Assembly (NCBI GenBank): GCA_963677895.2
Contig: CAXXGJ010000006.1
Span: forward strand, 160,001-224,000
DNA: 64,000 nucleotides
Direction of reading: 5' to 3'
From: Treponemataceae bacterium
GTDB lineage: Bacteria; Spirochaetota; Spirochaetia; Treponematales; Rectinemataceae
This document shows positions 7,206 to 15,307 of the stretch, piece after piece. How positions within the stretch are numbered: position 1 is the first letter of the stretch; every line of letters starts with the position of its first letter. The notes beneath the pieces are model-generated. The model did not search any database, was not told where the DNA came from, and saw only the letters and a list, made by a program, of their open reading frames with translations. The translations under genes were made by a program, and so were the position numbers.

Positions 7206-7252
7206 CGATTCAATACCGTGGTAACTCGCTTCATCAACTAGAGTATTAACGC

Positions 7253-7281
7253 TTGACCGCATTGTAATATTAAATTACAAT
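7253..7281 (+). promoter_or_regulatory. Sigma-70 promoter of the TA operon with an overlapping operator palindrome
   Basis: TTGACC (7253-7258), 17 nt, TACAAT (7276-7281). Inverted repeat ATTGTAAT-N5-ATTACAAT at 7261-7281. Confidence 0.75.
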
Positions 7282-7300
7282 ATAACTCATGAGGTAATAT

Positions 7301-7615
7301 GTGAAGGTTGAGTTTAAAAATTCTCAACTCGAAAAACTCTATTCAACCGGACAATCGAAGAAGTACCCAGTAGGCTCGGCTATCGCGACAAAATTCGTGG
7401 CCGTCGTAGCCAGATTGAAAGCCGCTCAAGACATCCACGATCTTTGGAGACTGCCTTCGCTAAACTTCGAACGACTTCATGGTAACCCGAACAGGTATTC
7501 GGCGAGAGTAACGATCAAGTACCGAGTCGAGATGGAAATAGACTGGGAAAACCAGGAGAAAACCATTGGACTTATCGGTATCGTCGAGCTCTCGAGCCAT
7601 TATGGAGGAAGGTGA
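7301..7615 (+). CDS. higB: HigB-like (RelE/ParE fold) toxin
   Basis: 104 aa with LEKLY, LPSLNFERLHG, YSARVTIKYRV; toxin-first order; GTGA overlap with the antitoxin. Confidence 0.8.
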   Translation: MKVEFKNSQLEKLYSTGQSKKYPVGSAIATKFVAVVARLKAAQDIHDLWRLPSLNFERLHGNPNRYSARVTIKYRVEMEIDWENQEKTIGLIGIVELSSHYGGR

Positions 7616-8721
7616 CTATGGGCGAACTCAAGCCATTCATCAATATCGGACCCGGCATCGTTATAAAGGATGAACTGGAAGCGCTAGGTTGGTCGCAGGA
7701 TGATCTGGCACGCATCATGGGCATGTCACTGAAAGCCGTCAATGAAATCCTTAACGACAAGGTGGCGATAACAGTCGAAACAGCGCGGCTTCTGGGAAAA
7801 GCATTCGGGACATCGGCGGAAATATGGATAAACCTGGATACGGCATATCGACTTCGCCTCCGAGAAGATACCGAGCGCGAACGGGAAGCCGAACGTTATG
7901 CGGCAGTCATGAAGTACATGCCGGTCAGGGAGATGGTCAAGAAAGGATGGCTAGAAACCTACAACTCGTCATCGGAGCTTTTGGAAAAAGCCAAGAATTT
8001 CTGGAATGTTTCCGAGCCTGATTTCTCATTCTTGGGCAAGGCTAAGGAGCCCTGTTTCAGGCGTTCCGACGCTTATGAATTCTACGAGAAATATTACGCC
8101 CTCACCTGGACCCAAAAAGCAAAGGATACTGCTTCAAGTATACATTTGCCGGAATGGGACAGAACCGCGGCCAAAAAGATTGGAGCAAAGCTCGGCAATT
8201 TCTCTCGGCTCGAGAATGGCACCTCGACATTTATACAGGACTTAGAAGTGGCAGGCATAGGGTTTTTCGTACTGAGCCACCTGCAGAAAACGTATCTGGA
8301 CGGAGCGGCGATTTTCGTCGGCGCGAATCCATTCATCGTCTATACTGGCCGCTTCGATCGTTGTGACAATTTCTGGTTTACCGTAGCCCACGAGTTAGCC
8401 CACCTAGTTCTTGGTCACGTGAAGAAGGACGGACAGGAAATCCTTGATGACCTGAAACAGGAAGCCGGAAACGATCAGGAAAAAGCAGCAGATAAACTGG
8501 CTGAAACCTATCTCCACACTGTGGAAATTCTGGAATTTTGCGCGCCTTTTAAAAAGTATCTCTCGCGCGAGAGGATAGAGCGCTGCGCTGAAACAGTCGG
8601 AGTAAGCCCGGGTATTGTGGTTGGAACCTTACAGTATGCGGGTATCCTGCCGTACAAGAACCTAAATAACTATAAAAGACCAATACTCACGGCACTTCCT
8701 GCATCATGCATCAAGGGATAA
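7612..8721 (+). CDS. higA: HigA-like XRE HTH antitoxin fused to an ImmA/IrrE-type HEXXH metallopeptidase
   Basis: N-terminal PG..IKDELEALGWSQDDLA...W.NL...Y; C-terminal DNFWFTVAHELAHL and E..AD. Confidence 0.8.
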   Translation: MTMGELKPFINIGPGIVIKDELEALGWSQDDLARIMGMSLKAVNEILNDKVAITVETARLLGKAFGTSAEIWINLDTAYRLRLREDTEREREAERYAAVMKYMPVREMVKKGWLETYNSSSELLEKAKNFWNVSEPDFSFLGKAKEPCFRRSDAYEFYEKYYALTWTQKAKDTASSIHLPEWDRTAAKKIGAKLGNFSRLENGTSTFIQDLEVAGIGFFVLSHLQKTYLDGAAIFVGANPFIVYTGRFDRCDNFWFTVAHELAHLVLGHVKKDGQEILDDLKQEAGNDQEKAADKLAETYLHTVEILEFCAPFKKYLSRERIERCAETVGVSPGIVVGTLQYAGILPYKNLNNYKRPILTALPASCIKG

Positions 8722-8723
8722 AC

Positions 8724-9554
8724 CTAGACATCATCAAAAAGCTCTTTTTGGTATTCATATGGTATCGGTAATACACCAACAATAACCCAAGGGTTAGGAG
8801 CTAAAAAATGAAACTGTTGAGTCGTGCCAAGATAAAAATGGAGATCTTTCTGTACAAATGTGTCGAAGTATTTTGCCCGAACTTTTTCCAAGACTTGTCG
8901 ATCATCTATCCCTGGTTCCTTGAAACAATTCCAATACAACGCCCCAATTTCCCAATCGAGTATTTGAAGCTGACAACTACGCCCTCGATCATCTTCAAAT
9001 CTGTAAGAAAAGCTATATGGCAACTTTTTTATTAGCTTGAAGGTTCTTCGCCATTCATTATCGTCAAATAAATCAAGCTGATTATAAAAACCCCTCATTT
9101 CAGCAACTTTAGATTCATCCCACTCTCGTTCTTCACTTTCTGAGATAAAATCTATAACTCTCGTAGGTTTGAATATCGCCAACGAAGTTATGTTCCGCTT
9201 TGCATCAATGATAAGAGCATCCATATTTGTATATACTTTTGCAGTTTTTAAGAGAATTTCTCGGCGTGCATGCCAATTATTCTCAGTACCAATTCTACCT
9301 ACCGGTTTTAATTCTTCAGGATTTATCGGACTATATGATTCTGGTCTTGGATCTTTGGTTCTCCGGTTTGTCTGGCATTCAATCCAATCATATTTGCTAT
9401 ATTGTTCAGCTTCATCCAGCCTTCGAAACGGCACTGGGTATAACCTTACCCAAGAGCCATCCTCCCTGATACCAGCCGTGCATACGGTTTCGCCATACTT
9501 CATCGATAATGTCGGATACGTTTTAACGGTGATTAGGATACGTTCCTTTGACAT
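8724..9554 (-). CDS. Conserved hypothetical protein, partner of DUF488 (possible dual-OB nucleic-acid-binding protein)
   Basis: 276 aa, N-terminal ITVKTYP.LS.KYGETVCTAG...G.WVRLYP; starts 12 nt after the DUF488 stop. Confidence 0.6.
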   Translation of the reverse strand: MSKERILITVKTYPTLSMKYGETVCTAGIREDGSWVRLYPVPFRRLDEAEQYSKYDWIECQTNRRTKDPRPESYSPINPEELKPVGRIGTENNWHARREILLKTAKVYTNMDALIIDAKRNITSLAIFKPTRVIDFISESEEREWDESKVAEMRGFYNQLDLFDDNEWRRTFKLIKKLPYSFSYRFEDDRGRSCQLQILDWEIGALYWNCFKEPGIDDRQVLEKVRAKYFDTFVQKDLHFYLGTTQQFHFLAPNPWVIVGVLPIPYEYQKELFDDV

Positions 9555-9566
9555 ACACCAGCTCCG

Positions 9567-10463
9567 TTACAAATTTATTATTTTTATTTTCTCCTCATGC
9601 GTACTTTCAATTGCTTCAGCCACACAGTGCCTATGGCATTGTTCGGGCAAGTGTTCATAGCACGTCAAGGCAACACTCTCTCCCTCCCTAATCCATATAC
9701 GAATCAATTCTAGTGATTCGCTTTTATTTGGAAGAATATTTTTTTTATATTCTTCGAAAAGATGATCATACTCTGCTTGTGTATCAAGATTTTTTCGTTG
9801 ATCGGACGCAATTCCCAAATCAGGCAAATGCTCATACCTGATTCCAACTCCTGCACAAGCCTTAAGCAAGGTATTCTTAGAAAATCCATATTTCCGGCTT
9901 ATTGGATTGCGACGTACATCACAAAGTAGGCTTACGCCACTTCGAATTAAAATATTCAGATACGCTTCCAGGGACAATCCTTCATACCCAATCGTCAGTA
10001 AGCCAGGACACTTTCTTGGTTTCGCTTCTTCGATTCGCTTCAATGCCTTGATATCTGAATGAAGGACCCTCTCCGCTATTTCACTTTTAATCCCGTAGTA
10101 TGGATATTTTCGATACGTTTCTGCAACTAATTCATCACCTCTCAAGCTTGAGTATTTTTGCATAAAACTGCTGATTTTTGTTTTGATATCGGGAGATACC
10201 ATTGTCGATGCCTCAAATCCCGATTGCGTCAATCGCCAATAATGTTCGTCAGGTGACAGCATTCCAGATTCGACCAAATGTCTGCGATCGGCATAGGATG
10301 TGAAGGAAAAGGCACCATACCGATATGGAATAAACTCGTAAAATGCGTTGACATCACACTCCTGGCAACTGAGAAAAAGTAGTTTCTGGAAGTCAAGATT
10401 TCCGACAGGACCATTAGCTGATGCCAACAGTGCCAGCAAGTATTTTTGTCGATGAAATATCAT
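9567..10463 (-). CDS. DUF488-domain protein with an N-terminal winged-helix-like domain
   Basis: TIGYEG, LCDVRRNPISRKYGFSK, YEHLPDLG, LTCYEHLPEQCHRH; N-terminal FQKLLFL...YEFIPYRYGAFS. Confidence 0.8.
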   Translation of the reverse strand: MIFHRQKYLLALLASANGPVGNLDFQKLLFLSCQECDVNAFYEFIPYRYGAFSFTSYADRRHLVESGMLSPDEHYWRLTQSGFEASTMVSPDIKTKISSFMQKYSSLRGDELVAETYRKYPYYGIKSEIAERVLHSDIKALKRIEEAKPRKCPGLLTIGYEGLSLEAYLNILIRSGVSLLCDVRRNPISRKYGFSKNTLLKACAGVGIRYEHLPDLGIASDQRKNLDTQAEYDHLFEEYKKNILPNKSESLELIRIWIREGESVALTCYEHLPEQCHRHCVAEAIESTHEEKIKIINL

Positions 10464-10511
10464 AGTGTCCTATTTACATTATACGAGAATATTTCAGCTT
10501 TACAAGTTCTC

Positions 10512-10604
10512 TTACTTCAACGCCGTATAGATTTCTTAAAGACTCTCGATACTAACTTCCAGTTTTTCGATGATCTCACCAGCGAGAATGTCAGGGTAAA
10601 GTAA
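10512..10604 (-). pseudogene. 3' remnant resembling the C-terminus of type I R-M methyltransferase HsdM
   Basis: Reads LLYPDILAGEIIEKLEVSIESL*EIYTALK*; internal stop at 10536-10538 and no upstream gene body. Confidence 0.55.
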
Positions 10605-10655
10605 AGGGTCACCATCTCTGGGAGCTCGGCATAAAGCATGGCAGAAGCGCGCAAC

Positions 10656-10676
10656 GGGTTGAAGCGGTTGTTCGTA
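10656..10676 (-). mobile_element. Truncated attC site (R''-L'' half only)
   Basis: Plus strand GGTTGAAGC-GGTT-GTTCG matches GGTTGAAGC-ATTT-GTTAG of the intact attC. It lies 15 nt after the DUF1801 stop; the complementary arm is absent. Confidence 0.6.
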
Positions 10677-10691
10677 AAATATTATTTCTTT

Positions 10692-11075
10692 CTATATTCG
10701 TCTCAATTCTCCATTATTGATTCTTATGTTTTTGTAATCCCATTGTATGCTTAGTGCTTCATCAAGCCACTTATTAAGTTCGTTTTCGTTTGTTTCTTCA
10801 ATTTTTGTATATACCCTTTCCGCAGCTTTGAATTTCCCGATTGGACTTAGCCCCTTGTTGCTGAAGGATTGTCCACTCCAAAAAAGTAGTGCAATTCCAT
10901 TTTTCTTTTTTGAATATCCGACTATCGGATTTTCGTCTATAAACCATACAGGAGCACCATGGTACATTTTTGATGTAGCGTTCTTCAGTTTTAGATTAAT
11001 CAAACCGCAGAGTTTTATGCAAATGTCTTTCAGGGTGCCTTCAAATTGATTGTTGTATTCTTCAAATTGATCCAT
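10692..11075 (-). CDS. DUF1801 (YdhG-like) protein, probable cassette gene
   Basis: Start MDQFEE at 11075 with GGAGGA RBS; K.YHGAPVWFIDENPIVGY..K...LLFWSGQSF. Confidence 0.8.
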   Translation of the reverse strand: MDQFEEYNNQFEGTLKDICIKLCGLINLKLKNATSKMYHGAPVWFIDENPIVGYSKKKNGIALLFWSGQSFSNKGLSPIGKFKAAERVYTKIEETNENELNKWLDEALSIQWDYKNIRINNGELRRI

Positions 11076-11275
11076 AATCCTCCGATATCTTGCTTGATCG
11101 AAGCAACATCTTTTATATGCTGGACGTATTTGCGCGCGTAGCATCAGGCTAATAAGTATGATGTCCTTCTTCGTAAAATACTTTTGAATAATCTATTTTC
11201 CATTAATATATTGTAGTTAAAACAAATATAACTCTTTTATACAACATAGCTATTTCAGCTCCATATAGTTGATCC

Positions 11276-11400
11276 GACTAACATAAGCTTAACCTTTAAA
11301 GCCTGGCCCGAGCTACTGCGAGGGATTGGCGTGGTTTGTGCATGTGATTTCTGCACAAACCATGCCAAAAGGCTTTATAAGGTTGAAGCATTTGTTAGGA
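11276..11400 (-). mobile_element. Integron attC recombination site (125 bp)
   Basis: R'' TCCTAAC (11400-11394) and R' GTTAGTC (11282-11276). Bottom-strand hairpin with unpaired spacer ATAA/ATTT and extrahelical G11385 and T11378. Inner 17-bp stem 11326-11342/11352-11368. Begins 7 nt after the RT stop. Confidence 0.9.
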
Positions 11401-11407
11401 TTCTTTT

Positions 11408-12730
11408 TTAAGACATTGCACTCATATCTTGTTCAATATCAAGAATACTCTTGTGTATTAATTTTTTAAATTTGTATTGCGCGTCATCTATATTTTTAAA
11501 CTGAATACCGATATAACTTAGTAGTTTTATTATCATATCGTCAGAATATTCATCATAATTGGGTATATATTTTGATTTTATGCCTTTTTTAGTTATTTCT
11601 TTATATACTCTAGATATCTTTTTAATTTTAAGCTCTTCACATTTATACCTTTTCATCTGTCTATTTATAAAGTGATCTATTGAAAATAATTCTTGAATAT
11701 TTTCTGTTTGTGAAAAAAAGAACATCCATCCATACTTTTTGTTTTCCCAAATAAATCCGGTAATTCTCAAGTTTACTCTAAACTCTAGTTTTTTTGGATT
11801 TTTTTTTGCCTGATGCTTATATATTGTTAGAAGACGTATAATAGATTCTTTGAATTTCCTTTTGCTCTTTAATCGAATTGATACTTTTCTATTTGAAAAA
11901 CAATATCCAAGGTAATCAAACTTATCATGAATTGGTGCAACCTTATACTTATCCCCATCATTAAAGACTAACTTGTATTTTTCAATTTCTTTGAATAATT
12001 TATTTTCTAAATACTTCCTATTATCAAAATTACATAAAATTAAAATATCATCAACGTACCTATAGTACTTAATATTTCTTATCTTTGAGATCTCTTTATC
12101 AAATGGAGTTAGATATACATTTGCAAGAATATTTGCTATAGATAAACCTTGCGGAACTCCTTTATCCCTGACAAAAATATCATCAGCTTTGTAAGCAGAA
12201 TTTGTATTTTTAATAGACGCCATAAGCAATTTTATAACTTCAACTTTTCTAATTTTTGTTTTAACTTGTTTTAATAGTATCTCGTGATCTATGCTTGGGT
12301 AATAATTTTTAACATCTAGCTTAATAAAGCAATTATACTGTAAGTCTTTAATACTTTTTGATATATCTGCAATTTGAGTATGCAGCCTTCTTTTTACTAA
12401 TTGTTCGGTAAATGCACTTTCAAGTATTTCGAATAATGCTCTTAAGACTAATCGATCTCTCAAAGTTGGCTTTTCAACAATTCTTGGACAACTATTGTAG
12501 CCTTTTGAAAGTAATTTTGCTTTATAGACAGTAAAACTATACGTTCCTGCCTTACACTTAGTAATAATTAACTCTGTGTGCAATGCAAAATCACGTCGAA
12601 ACTGATGGCTTGTCATTCCATCAATTCCTGAAGTTGCATTTAATCCAATTTTATCATCAAATATTGATAATAAAGCTTTATTTGTAAATATTTTATTAAA
12701 TTTTTCTGCAGAATTTAACTTAATAGCCAT
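11408..12730 (-). CDS. Reverse transcriptase, UG17/DRT10-like defence-associated type
   Basis: GIDG, SKG...PRIVEKPTLRDR, FIKLDVKNYYPSIDH, GVPQGLSIANILANVYL, YYRYVDDILI, FDYLGY, C-terminal YGWMFFFSQ. Likely start MAIKL at 12730, overlapping the SLATT stop (ORF track extends to 12814). Confidence 0.88.
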   Translation of the reverse strand: MAIKLNSAEKFNKIFTNKALLSIFDDKIGLNATSGIDGMTSHQFRRDFALHTELIITKCKAGTYSFTVYKAKLLSKGYNSCPRIVEKPTLRDRLVLRALFEILESAFTEQLVKRRLHTQIADISKSIKDLQYNCFIKLDVKNYYPSIDHEILLKQVKTKIRKVEVIKLLMASIKNTNSAYKADDIFVRDKGVPQGLSIANILANVYLTPFDKEISKIRNIKYYRYVDDILILCNFDNRKYLENKLFKEIEKYKLVFNDGDKYKVAPIHDKFDYLGYCFSNRKVSIRLKSKRKFKESIIRLLTIYKHQAKKNPKKLEFRVNLRITGFIWENKKYGWMFFFSQTENIQELFSIDHFINRQMKRYKCEELKIKKISRVYKEITKKGIKSKYIPNYDEYSDDMIIKLLSYIGIQFKNIDDAQYKFKKLIHKSILDIEQDMSAMS

Positions 12731-13290
12731 ATAAATATTCCTATCGGGATAACTAAGTAAATCAGAATTATTATTAGCCAAACTACTATATTTCGTATAA
12801 TAAAATAGCTCCATTCAAAAAATGATGGATTTGGAACAGTATTATTCTCAGAAGGATTTGTGGTTTTTCTAAGAAAACACTGAATAATTACTTTTTTATA
12901 ATCATATTCTGAGTGATTTTCAGTTTCCCTAAGCAATTGATCATATTGATCTTCAATATTCGCTGTACTATCATTTCTGTTTTCTGCAGAATAAGCATCA
13001 CTTATTAGTTTCCCGATACTAATATATTGTTCTTTTACTTGTCGGCATTCTTGTTTAAAATCTTTCTGCGATAGTAAAAGCGATACAACTAATACAATAA
13101 TCGAACCGAGCACTGAAAAGGTGTTTCTAATAGAGGAATCAACATTAGAAGGTATGATAGATACAGCAATAAGTAAAATTGAATACCACGGAATCAAGTA
13201 AGTACAGATTTTATAATTGAAATTCAATCTTTTTTCCATATTAATACGTACTTTTCTTGTAATCCACATTCTATCACTTAGCTTATTCAT
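12715..13290 (-). CDS. SLATT-domain transmembrane effector
   Basis: N-terminal W.TRKVRINMEKRL helix, two adjacent TM helices, Y..LL..TENHSEYDY, further C-terminal TM; GGAG RBS. Confidence 0.8.
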   Translation of the reverse strand: MNKLSDRMWITRKVRINMEKRLNFNYKICTYLIPWYSILLIAVSIIPSNVDSSIRNTFSVLGSIIVLVVSLLLSQKDFKQECRQVKEQYISIGKLISDAYSAENRNDSTANIEDQYDQLLRETENHSEYDYKKVIIQCFLRKTTNPSENNTVPNPSFFEWSYFIIRNIVVWLIIILIYLVIPIGIFIWLLS

Positions 13291-13299
13291 AACTACTCC

Positions 13300-13432
13300 A
13301 AAAAAAAGGGGGAATTCTTATAGGAACACCTTAACAACGCTTCTTGCAAAGCTTATCTCTCGATAAAAGCATTACTGCTTTTTTGAATAGAACACCTACA
13401 ATGTAAGCTGTGTAAACACAAAGAATCCCCCC
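13300..13432 (-). ncRNA. Putative RT template ncRNA
   Basis: 12-bp closing stem GGGGGGAUUCUU/AAGAAUUCCCCC followed by U8. Three abutting 5-bp GNRA hairpins (13380-13339), a UGUG-UUUA-CACA hairpin and two AGGUGUUC repeats. Confidence 0.78.
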
Positions 13433-13446
13433 AATAATCACAAAGT

Positions 13447-13468
13447 AATCCTAACAATTATTATACCG
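13447..13468 (-). mobile_element. Cassette 5' recombination point (G/TTAGGATT), attI-like, with adjacent TATAAT
   Basis: GTTAGGATT (13455-13447) is the exact 9-bp complement of the R'' end at 11394-11402; TATAAT at 13465-13460. Confidence 0.65.
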
Positions 13469-13700
13469 TTTATCATAAACTACTATTTAGGTAATCTATT
13501 CGCCAGTAACATATGACACCATCATTAGATGTTATATCTCTTTGAGTGATTCCGCAACATTTTTCGTGATTCTTATAATCCTACGTAAGTAATGAAGAGT
13601 AATGCAACTAACGCGATGGGCGCCTTACCATGCATTAACAAAGCCAAGGGTCAATTTACAGCAACTGCCCGCAATCGACAAACTCTTGATATCGTTTTTG

Positions 13701-14444
13701 CTATTTTTTTAAAATACTTGACGCATCGACAATGACTAGCATTTTCTCTTTACACTCATCCCAAAGCCGCGGCTCAGTAACTAGCTCGCACATAAAATGC
13801 GCGACATTAGCCATGGCGGTGGCTTTAGGCTTGAAAAGACTGCTCACAAGGCTCTCGTGTACCTTGTACTCGCTCACGTCGCCCTCTGTGAGGCTATCCG
13901 GGCGCACGACAACCCACTGGATTGCGGGATCGACGAGGCCGATCCTGTCGCGAAGGTAGTCGGCCGCATTCTGATTATCCGAGGCGGGGGGCACGAGGCC
14001 GCGCATGACCCAGAGAAGGGCCTTTTCCAAAACCCCCCGCCGCGCATCGGCAGCGCCTGGCACGTTGACCGAAACACTGCTCATGAGCACGAACTTGACC
14101 GCTTTTTCGGGCTTGAGAGCCTGAACAGCCGCGCAAGCCCTGGCGACGACCTGCGCCACAAGATCCCTGGGCTGACCGAAAATGCCTTTCATTGTCGTGG
14201 TTGTGTGGCCGAGGCAGGAAATGATCGCGTCGCATCCGGCGACGTACCGGCTAAGCTCGTCGTCGCCTAACGACAATAAATCGGCCTCGATTACCTCAAG
14301 CCCCTCCTTGCCGGCAACTCCTTCGGGCAGCCTGGCGCTTGAACGGACGATCGCGCGGACGGTGACTCCGCGTTCCAGAAGCTGCCTGAGGACGCGGCCG
14401 CCGGTGCGCCCGGTGCCACCCAATAAAAGCACGGTGATGTTCAC
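13701..14444 (-). CDS. NAD(P)H-binding atypical SDR oxidoreductase
   Basis: GGTGRTG Rossmann motif; WVVVRPDSL; GTGA overlap with the upstream HTH gene. Confidence 0.85.
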   Translation of the reverse strand: MNITVLLLGGTGRTGGRVLRQLLERGVTVRAIVRSSARLPEGVAGKEGLEVIEADLLSLGDDELSRYVAGCDAIISCLGHTTTTMKGIFGQPRDLVAQVVARACAAVQALKPEKAVKFVLMSSVSVNVPGAADARRGVLEKALLWVMRGLVPPASDNQNAADYLRDRIGLVDPAIQWVVVRPDSLTEGDVSEYKVHESLVSSLFKPKATAMANVAHFMCELVTEPRLWDECKEKMLVIVDASSILKK

Positions 14445-14671
14445 GATTCTTCCTCCGAATAGTGGAACACCTCGTTCAGCGGCACGCCGAACACGTTGGC
14501 GATTCGGAAGGCCATCTCCAGCGAAGGAGAATAACGGCCCTGCTCTATCGCGATTATTGTCTGCCTGGTCACACGCACGCGGTCCGCGAGCTCGGCCTGG
14601 GTCATCTCGCCCGCGGCGAACCTGAGCGTCCGAATGCTGTTGGTCACCCTCATCGACGAGTCCATGATCAA
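14441..14671 (-). CDS. XRE-family HTH transcriptional regulator
   Basis: MTQAELADRVRVTRQTIIAIEQGRYSPSLEMAFRIA. Confidence 0.92.
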   Translation of the reverse strand: MIMDSSMRVTNSIRTLRFAAGEMTQAELADRVRVTRQTIIAIEQGRYSPSLEMAFRIANVFGVPLNEVFHYSEEES

Positions 14672-15120
14672 TAACCCCTGCGGTAGATGACGATCTTGAC
14701 CACGGAGGACACGAGCCCCCCTATCATCATGGTCAAAAAGAGGGCGTTCGCGATCCAGAACTGGTCAGCCCTCACCATGGCGAGGGCTATGACGCCGAGA
14801 ATGCCCACCGACGCGACGTAGTAGCCGACAAGCTCGCCGCGGCGGTTGATGTGGTCATCCCTCTCGTCTTTGCGGCCGATATCGTCCGCCGAGCCCCTGT
14901 GTCGTATCTCGGCAGCGACGGCGGAGCCGATCGACATGAGTATCATGCCAACGATCGTCGCGACGATAATGGCTCCGATGGCCATGAGCATTGGTTTCTG
15001 ATAGGCGATATGGGCCAGCGGCACGCTTCCCATCTGATTGAGAACAAAGGAGCAATAAATTCCCGTGACCAGCACGGTCACAATGGTTGAAACCCAGGTG
15101 GCTCTCTCTTCGTACGACAT
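14668..15120 (-). CDS. Small 4-TM membrane protein with DERD motif (XRE operon partner)
   Basis: Start MSYEER at 15120 with GGAGG RBS; KDERD between the TM pairs. Confidence 0.7.
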   Translation of the reverse strand: MSYEERATWVSTIVTVLVTGIYCSFVLNQMGSVPLAHIAYQKPMLMAIGAIIVATIVGMILMSIGSAVAAEIRHRGSADDIGRKDERDDHINRRGELVGYYVASVGILGVIALAMVRADQFWIANALFLTMMIGGLVSSVVKIVIYRRGY

Positions 15121-15131
15121 CGAAACCTCCA

Positions 15132-15200
15132 ACATGTCAAGAATGTTTGACATGTGCTAATGTAAAGCTATCTATACATTATGTCAAGGATGTTATACAA
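15132..15200. promoter_or_regulatory. Three tandem operator palindromes, ATGTcAA-N6-TtgACAT
   Basis: 15132-15155 (perfect 9-bp arms), 15159-15180 and 15181-15200, upstream of the XRE operon. Confidence 0.75.
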
Positions 15201-15307
15201 AAAAATATTATTCAGTGAGCAGGGTGCGTGACCAAACGGGAGCCGATTCCCGATTGGTCATGACTTTTCGGGAATCCGTTTCATTTTAGTCCTTTGTAAA
15301 GCGCAGA

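Follow-up and report, generated by a model that had tools for sequence, protein, structure and literature searches.

DRT10 (UG17), a tripartite anti-phage system whose product is telomere-like repeat DNA, has been described previously (PMC12632851; 10.64898/2026.04.29.721553; 10.64898/2026.06.29.735271; 10.64898/2026.10.08.757509). In the accessible text of these papers, the C-terminal serine of Eco3DRT10 primes synthesis (PMC12632851), the loops of the Eco3DRT10 ncRNA measure 12 and 19 nt (10.64898/2026.06.29.735271), the characterised E. coli locus has a native promoter, and subtypes A, B and C are separated by published RNA models (both 10.64898/2026.04.29.721553). The words "integron" and "cassette" are absent from the DRT10 papers in which they were looked for. 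No paper joining DRT10/UG17 and integron cassettes was found in a search that covered little of the subscription literature and included the accessible parts of PMC13434031 and 10.64898/2026.03.17.712381; PMC13707901 names UG17 and integrons, but separately in the text available.

Defence systems on integron cassettes are also known. In sedentary chromosomal integrons, 783 defence systems have been reported on single cassettes with at most two components, mostly Vibrio toxin-antitoxin and one-gene systems (10.1101/2024.07.02.601686); the available main text is without the terms "DRT", "retron" and "reverse transcriptase", and Table S4 of that study may list RT systems. Cassettes with an attC outside an integron platform and without an integrase nearby have been described as SALIN/CALIN and attG insertions, the attG sites requiring only GWT and differing from attI, according to the accessible part of 10.1101/2022.09.11.507474. 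For Treponema, the accessible part of PMC3607928 describes an intI transcribed toward attI, attC sites of 115-132 bp and, in some species, attC without intI.

The locus reported here lies in a 64,000-nucleotide stretch of spirochaete DNA (the window). It resembles described DRT10 systems in having an ncRNA 5' of SLATT_5, overlapping SLATT and RT genes, a YVDD motif and a C-terminal serine, and is unlike published DRT10 in lying between integron sites. It shares with the anti-phage cassettes of sedentary integrons, which are activated by array position, the presence of a whole compact system on one cassette; an RT-bearing cassette is not among the Treponema-type cassettes in the available text of PMC3607928. 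DRT10 and defence cassettes are thus each known, their combination was not found in print, and no new mechanism is revealed. The integron defence-cassette repertoire, so far of small systems with one or two genes, nevertheless gains an RNA-templated DNA-synthesis system, and integrons are added to the routes by which such systems may spread. Our preferred reading, to which we assign a probability of roughly 0.86, is that a complete DRT10 system was captured as one cassette of the host lineage's long-attC family, with repeat synthesis and off-array insertion as its conjectural parts.

The cassette and its attC site

The whole DRT10 system is packaged as a single integron gene cassette of 2,173 bp on the minus strand (11283..13455); the counterpart at the homologous locus L114 measures 2,154 bp. 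Read on the minus strand from 13455, it consists of a non-coding stretch of 165 nt, genes for 191 and 440 aa, 7 nt and an attC, the lengths of which add up to 2,173 bp and leave no spare DNA. The cassette proper (13455-11283) excludes positions 11282-11276, which are the start of the next unit. Its G+C content is 28.9%, as compared with 56.0% for the genome.

The attC (11276..11400, minus strand) has its R'' box at 11400-11394, L'' at 11389-11382, L' at 11293-11287 and R' at 11282-11276, and 7 nt (11407-11401) separate R'' from the RT stop codon, a TAA ending at 11408. The textbook consensus of R'' is RYYYAAC, from which the first base deviates here. The plus strand of 11274-11402, i.e. the bottom strand of the cassette, folds as one long DNA hairpin (-37.8 kcal/mol, z -9.3, none of 200 shuffles as good) in which G11385 and T11378 are unpaired (extrahelical). 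A covariance model scored 11274-11402 at 122.2 bits on the bottom strand (E 1.3e-26, a rough value) and at 50.9 bits on the top strand, and found no other attC in the window; its 29 training sites came from other genomes, 25 of them from the same-genus genome G050 and four from L114, and it is not the model of IntegronFinder. An earlier sequence-only reading of this DNA had placed a canonical attC with four boxes and an extrahelical G and T 7 nt past the RT stop, and had named a covariance model score over 11276-11400 as a check; fold, boxes and the family model all bear this out.

The host assembly comprises 39 contigs and is 92.8% complete, and a scan of all of it for hairpins located a long array of 51 attC sites on contig C39. 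A profile built from 40 of these sites, the window's site being left out, scored the window attC at 104.2 bits (E 8.5e-30), and the nearest C39 site is 90% identical to it. Hence, 11276-11400 is a true attC belonging to the family of the host's own C39 array. Small arrays are also present on host contigs C2, C5 and C18.

The 5' end of the cassette (R' core, 13447..13455, minus strand) begins at GTT, with the crossover between G13455 and T13454. The minus strand at 13455-13447 is identical to the plus strand at 11394-11402 over exactly 9 nt, with a mismatch at the tenth, so that the earlier claim of a 5' end forming an exact 9-bp complement of the R'' end holds to the nucleotide. Counted on both strands of the 3.5-Mb genome, this 9-mer has 12 occurrences. 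When the junction of the excised circle was modelled, it folded at -41.8 kcal/mol, against -37.8 kcal/mol for the resident attC. Among the cassettes of the C39 array, 43 of 50 have an exact end complement of at least 7 nt and 17 of 50 one of 9 nt, which is the maximum; the cassette interval has a median of 826 bp and exceeds 2 kb in 2/50. By these statistics the ends of the DRT10 cassette are normal and its size is large. The proposal that one cassette of about 2.2 kb holds exactly an ncRNA, a SLATT gene and an RT gene is supported by the complementary ends, the covariance model, the attC sites on either side of L114 and the near-identical copy that follows a different attC. The cassette ends thereby mark a natural minimal DRT10 unit of 2.17 kb and set an outer 5' limit for the ncRNA.

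A second, decayed cassette follows (10625..11282, minus strand). It holds a DUF1801-like gene (11144-10692), with a Pfam DUF1801 score just below the cut-off, and then the left half only of an attC (10672-10625; 14.2 bits, E 0.06 with the C39-site profile), for which there was no covariance-model match.

The attI-like site and the integrase

No attC lies upstream of the cassette, as judged by the C39 profile and the covariance model. The cassette is instead preceded by an attI-like insertion site without an adjoining intI (13456..13472, minus strand), either an orphan attI or an attI-like secondary site. A matrix trained on 21 host-family sites adjacent to intI ranked it 5th among the 73,319 GTT sites of the genome, a rank that is partly circular because the training sites had been chosen by a pattern; its score of 16.0 is near the bottom of the leave-one-out range. 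With the same matrix, three of 2,594 A+T-rich GTT sites score as high, the window site included. The starts of small arrays on contigs C13, C28 and C30 ranked 1st, 9th and 22nd. Since C13, C28 and C4 carry 95%-identical copies of one locus (three alleles with different cassettes), the attI-like array starts represent three independent places.

Genomes of the host family carry intI in 39 of 68 cases, directed toward an attI that lies 152-172 nt past the intI stop, which is the layout of Treponema-type integrons in the available text of PMC3607928. In the host assembly, intI was not found with TIGR02249, by inspection of PF00589 matches or with family IntI proteins, the best TIGR02249 matches being Xer-type recombinases far below the cut-off. 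A 295-aa recombinase on C30 was considered as an IntI and rejected, its sequence being without the IntI insert, which we take to be the recognising feature. Contig C39 starts within a cassette and the intI end of its array is unassembled; with a completeness of 92.8%, the host may still carry an intI outside the assembled contigs. At the DRT10 locus itself, no intI lies next to the attI-like site and the locus is not a complete integron.

According to our preferred reading, an integrase of the host family would have cut the cassette out of an array in circular form, the attC of the circle regaining a fully paired R box, and the folded bottom strand of the circle would then have been inserted at the attI-like site, which occupies a variable slot of the chromosome outside the main array. 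In the related genomes G050 and G009, different genes lie between those that flank this slot. The arrangement is like that of SALIN/CALIN and attG insertions, in which a cassette and its attC lie outside a platform with no integrase nearby (10.1101/2022.09.11.507474, accessible part); the window site is unlike attG in resembling the family attI over 17 nt.

That last feature favours the strongest competing account, which we hold to be possible at rather low confidence: 13456-13472 would be the true attI of a former integron that has lost intI by deletion, in which case ordinary attI x attC recombination brought in the cassette and what remains is a relic two-cassette array. The attG sites of the literature require no more than GWT and are distinct from attI, a low-G+C spacer of 245 bp separates the site from the next gene, the downstream unit is decayed, and loss of intI with attC remaining is reported for Treponema in the available text of PMC3607928. 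However, no remnant of intI was detected in 13456-13700 in six frames or with family IntI proteins at the protein and DNA level, and attC is absent from the corresponding slot in both G009 and G050. Two other, unrelated loci, on C30 and on C13/C28/C4, also start small arrays at such sites without intI, and the relic account would therefore need repeated clean deletions.

It is unlikely, in our view, that the host has lost intI altogether, so that a former cassette is now fixed in the chromosome and nothing moves any more. The lack of intI in the assembly and of an upstream attC would fit such a state, as would the decay of the neighbouring cassette and of a UG9 cassette on C30 and the degenerate last sites of the C39 array. 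Yet the intI end of C39 is missing from an incomplete assembly, the attC of the DRT10 cassette is intact, the cassettes differ among the three alleles of one locus, and copies found elsewhere differ at 11-12 of about 2,085 bases, which points to a recent move.

The sequence-only reading had taken the cassette structure to imply IntI-mediated mobility. This stands as history; at the present locus, however, the upstream attC is absent, the attI-like neighbour has no intI and intI was not found in the 92.8%-complete assembly. Mobility of the cassette in the past is thus well supported, and present mobility at this locus is not well supported. Being first behind an attI-like site and without an upstream attC, the cassette is probably more stable here than a mid-array one.

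The DRT10 cargo, its predicted product and its expression

The SLATT_5 membrane effector (12715..13290, minus strand; 191 aa) has hydrophobic stretches at about residues 27-50, 53-78 and 157-191 by hydropathy, and is assigned by Pfam SLATT_5 (6.2e-29), PADLOC RTasSLATT (4.5e-38) and NCBIfam NF033631 (above cut-off). The reverse transcriptase (11408..12730, minus strand; 440 aa) starts at the ATG at 12730, overlaps the end of the SLATT gene by 16 nt, has YVDD at residues 225-228 and ends in Ser440, a last residue that is nearly invariant in 24 homologues. PADLOC RT_UG17 scored it at 435.8 bits and the next family at 121.8 bits.

The predicted ncRNA (13308..13432, minus strand) is about 125 nt long and consists of a 12-bp closing stem (13432-13421/13319-13308) around five inner hairpins, followed by a U-run. 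The region folds as RNA with z -3.79 (0/200 shuffles), and the closing stem is kept in L114 through paired substitutions in its two strands. Over the 165 nt that follow the 5' boundary, identity to L114 is 81%, as compared with 65% for coding DNA. The ncRNA model was drawn from two sequences, those of the window and L114; the inner hairpins were placed partly by eye and the minimum-energy fold agrees with the hand model in part. When a two-sequence profile was run against 122 upstream regions, no further member came up, which precludes a covariation statistic, and Rfam gave no match in the whole window. The closing stem with inner hairpins, loops of about 12 nt (A) and 19 nt (B, 13338-13320) and an A-B-A' arrangement are as in DRT10.

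The putative A-B-A' template lies within loop B (13325..13336, minus strand), where a 2-nt linker is followed by a 4-nt direct repeat spaced 8 nt apart. L114 keeps A and A' with one base altered in B, a change that fits the published A-B-A' rule. Chance alone would not rarely produce a repeat of 4 nt in a loop of 19 nt. The predicted cDNA product is (CCTTAACA)n, an 8-nt repeat, the period holding in either of two possible registers; repeats of 9 nt (Eco3) and 7 nt distinguish other DRT10 systems, and the 8-nt product is a testable prediction. By analogy with DRT10 papers, two RT molecules would bind the structured RNA and prime from the C-terminal serine, the RT would copy loop B repeatedly into protein-linked (CCTTAACA)n DNA, and upon phage infection this repeat DNA may trigger the SLATT membrane effector.

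Judged by its gene content and predicted RNA, the cargo is the three-part DRT10 (UG17) system of ncRNA, SLATT_5 and RT. Some homologues carry a "retron-type" label in databases, and the RT might accordingly act as a retron or as another DRT type in place of DRT10-style repeat synthesis. We consider this very improbable, as the retron St85 model scored only 50.4 bits against the 435.8 bits of RT_UG17, SLATT_5 lies upstream of the RT in all 122 scorable homologous loci, and both the terminal serine and the A-B-A' loop are present.

The distance from the crossover to the closing stem of the ncRNA is 23 nt only, unlike the characterised E. coli DRT10 locus with its native promoter. A whole promoter does not fit into such a leader and the cassette must depend on its landing place. 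A promoter scan of 13250-13750 found no minus-strand promoter, and with the short leader this makes the cassette look promoterless. A lone TATAAT hexamer (13460..13465, minus strand), a possible -10 element with no -35, is situated within the attI-like site. By a spacing rule that we assume to apply, TATAAT at 13465-13460 is at the usual -10 distance from A13452. We put forward as a long shot the idea that cassette packaging, by removing the system's own promoter, makes DRT10 position-switched: silent in mid-array, it would be activated once the host-family integrase moves it to scattered attI-like sites, where TATAAT would also serve as the -10 of the ncRNA (start near 13452). Such orphan sites might then form a second, integrase-in-trans route for chromosomal RT-based immunity, with two or more uses in this genome (DRT10 at this locus and UG9 on C30). 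The locus in any event offers a concrete case for studying how a separately processed or separately started RNA is expressed from a promoterless cassette.

Copies elsewhere and cassettes among DRT10 loci

Metagenome comparison covered four of 21 listed sequencing runs. In a soil metagenome (run X5), a 2,110-nt contig spans 11369-13456 with 12 differences (99.4% identical), and its 22-nt loose end past 13456 looks like the right arm of a different attC. In a hydrocarbon metagenome from a separate study (run X4), a 2,104-nt contig spans 11374-13456 with 11 differences, mostly those of X5. In groundwater (run X9), the first 131 letters of a 1,467-nt contig correspond to 13327-13457 and the following >1.3 kb are unlike the window. 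On the flanks of the cassette, coverage by runs X4 and X5 is nil or almost nil, which alone proves nothing. A joint between 11396 and 13460 in run X2 (depth 3.5, 23-nt side) was considered as an excision joint and rejected, as it does not match the joint expected; X2 shows no difference from the window and may be where the window sequence came from.

At L114, the RT of which is 66% identical, the homologous cassette lies in mid-array with attC on both sides, and its first 12 bases and R'' are as in the window. Identity between the two loci begins exactly at the GTT of the 5' end; outside the cassette it is 48% in the 150 nt past 13455 and 47% past the attC, as compared with 47.5% in a shuffled control. 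The sequence-only reading had named flanks conserved beyond 13455 as the finding that would speak against a boundary there, and had suggested a search for the cassette in other arrays. Identity drops to shuffle level past that position, and the search yielded both the 99.4% copy behind another attC in soil and the 66% homologue in mid-array. As judged from these alignments, the DRT10 unit moves as one, a near-identical cassette having been shown in another att context. The notion that the locus is no cassette, an unrelated attC having come to lie after the RT with a 9-nt match by chance, could draw on the many DRT10 loci without cassette ends and on the 4.8 of 147 matches of 7 nt expected by chance, but it is extremely improbable and is refuted by the identity that starts at GTT and drops at the boundaries, the attC at the same boundary in L114 and in the X5 copy, and the rarity of the end 9-mer (12 in the genome).

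Homologous loci were surveyed as the best 160 of at least 881 confirmed, found with an alignment query; a single-protein query confirmed none. Within this set of the best 160 of at least 881, a relaxed scan for attC picked out 4 of the 156 loci that could be scored, the window included, against 0 of 468 shuffles, and 10 of 147 loci passed an end-match test at 7 nt, as compared with the 4.8 expected by chance. A strict scan flagged five of the 156 loci, of which two were discarded by eye as A+T-rich noise, and missed L035 and L045. Both cassette ends are present at four other DRT10 loci of about 150, firmly at L114 and L190 (fold z -8.8 and -8.1; attC on both sides) and more weakly at L035 (z -2.0) and L045, where the automatic fold took the wrong end. 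Partial sites at L043, L082, L102 and L115 were not counted, and L042, L081 and L093 have end matches without an attC. Cassette packaging is therefore a minority state of DRT10, most of the roughly 150 loci examined not being cassettes. The earlier view that multi-gene cassettes carrying an ncRNA are unusual stands in part, and is tempered by published two-component defence cassettes and by these four loci.

In a FastTree phylogeny of 153 RTs, the four cassette loci fall into four separate well-supported groups among loci without attC, which suggests repeated capture of DRT10 as a cassette. Neither the 68 other genomes searched in the host family nor 400 genomes of the order yielded the RT; among 400 genomes of the phylum it was present in one (L215, without attC by the strict scan). 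Protein records P0002-P0005 and P0121 lie on further contigs and include an identical RT on a 1.6-Mb contig. Distant homologues of the RT are present in six plasmid records.

Surroundings of the window cassettes

A variable slot that follows an alcohol dehydrogenase gene extends over window positions 7206-15230, and its counterparts in two other genomes of the family hold one ATPase-like gene (G050, of the same genus) and a hipA-like gene (G009), both labels being read from the sequence. The stretch 7301-10463, which adjoins the cassettes, carries genes for a HigB-like toxin and an HTH/IrrE-type antitoxin (7301-8721, plus strand) and the PDC-M19A/B candidate defence pair (10463-8724, minus strand). 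No attC was detected in this stretch by the covariance-model scan of the window, and it is a small defence cluster within the variable slot. The DUF1801-like gene of the window is followed by the left half alone of an attC (10625-10672).

DRT10 loci with full or partial cassette ends in other genomes

The RTs of loci L081 and L190 are sisters and their upstream RNA regions are near-identical. L190 is flanked on both sides by attC; in L081, located on a complete Nitrincola chromosome, an attC hairpin was searched for and none was found despite the presence of a 9-nt end match, and this locus is possibly a domesticated former cassette. A further candidate DRT10 cassette is L045:49-2330, in which the gene 5' of the RT seems to begin shortly past the cassette 5' end, and hence its RNA may be located elsewhere.

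Other arrays and attI-like sites of the host assembly

An attC array takes up the whole of the 46-kb contig C39 (L217-L219). It comprises 51 sites, each about 120-150 bp long; the beginning of the array is unassembled and its final sites are degenerate. One locus is present three times, at C13:13342, C28:14314 and C4:7973 (L220, L221), in copies that are 95% identical, probably as a result of a strain mixture in the assembly. An attI-like site follows the same gene in all three copies, the cassettes behind it differ, and the locus is an orphan insertion hot spot.

DRT10 is not the only RT defence system of the assembly: another, on contig C30, lies behind an attC that is intact (C30:15694-19037, equivalent to L216:2195-5538; minus strand). 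Its UG9 RT (PADLOC RT_UG9_small) is split over three reading frames and accompanied by a PolA-like partner (RTasPolA). The end of the unit resembles a degenerate attC, and the small array to which the unit belongs begins at an attI-like site (C30:19191).

Three intI genes scored over the cut-off in each of G027, also of this family, and G050 (L197-L199 and L194-L196, respectively). Several IntI frames of the host family, at 400-570 aa, are longer than the 315-position IntI model.
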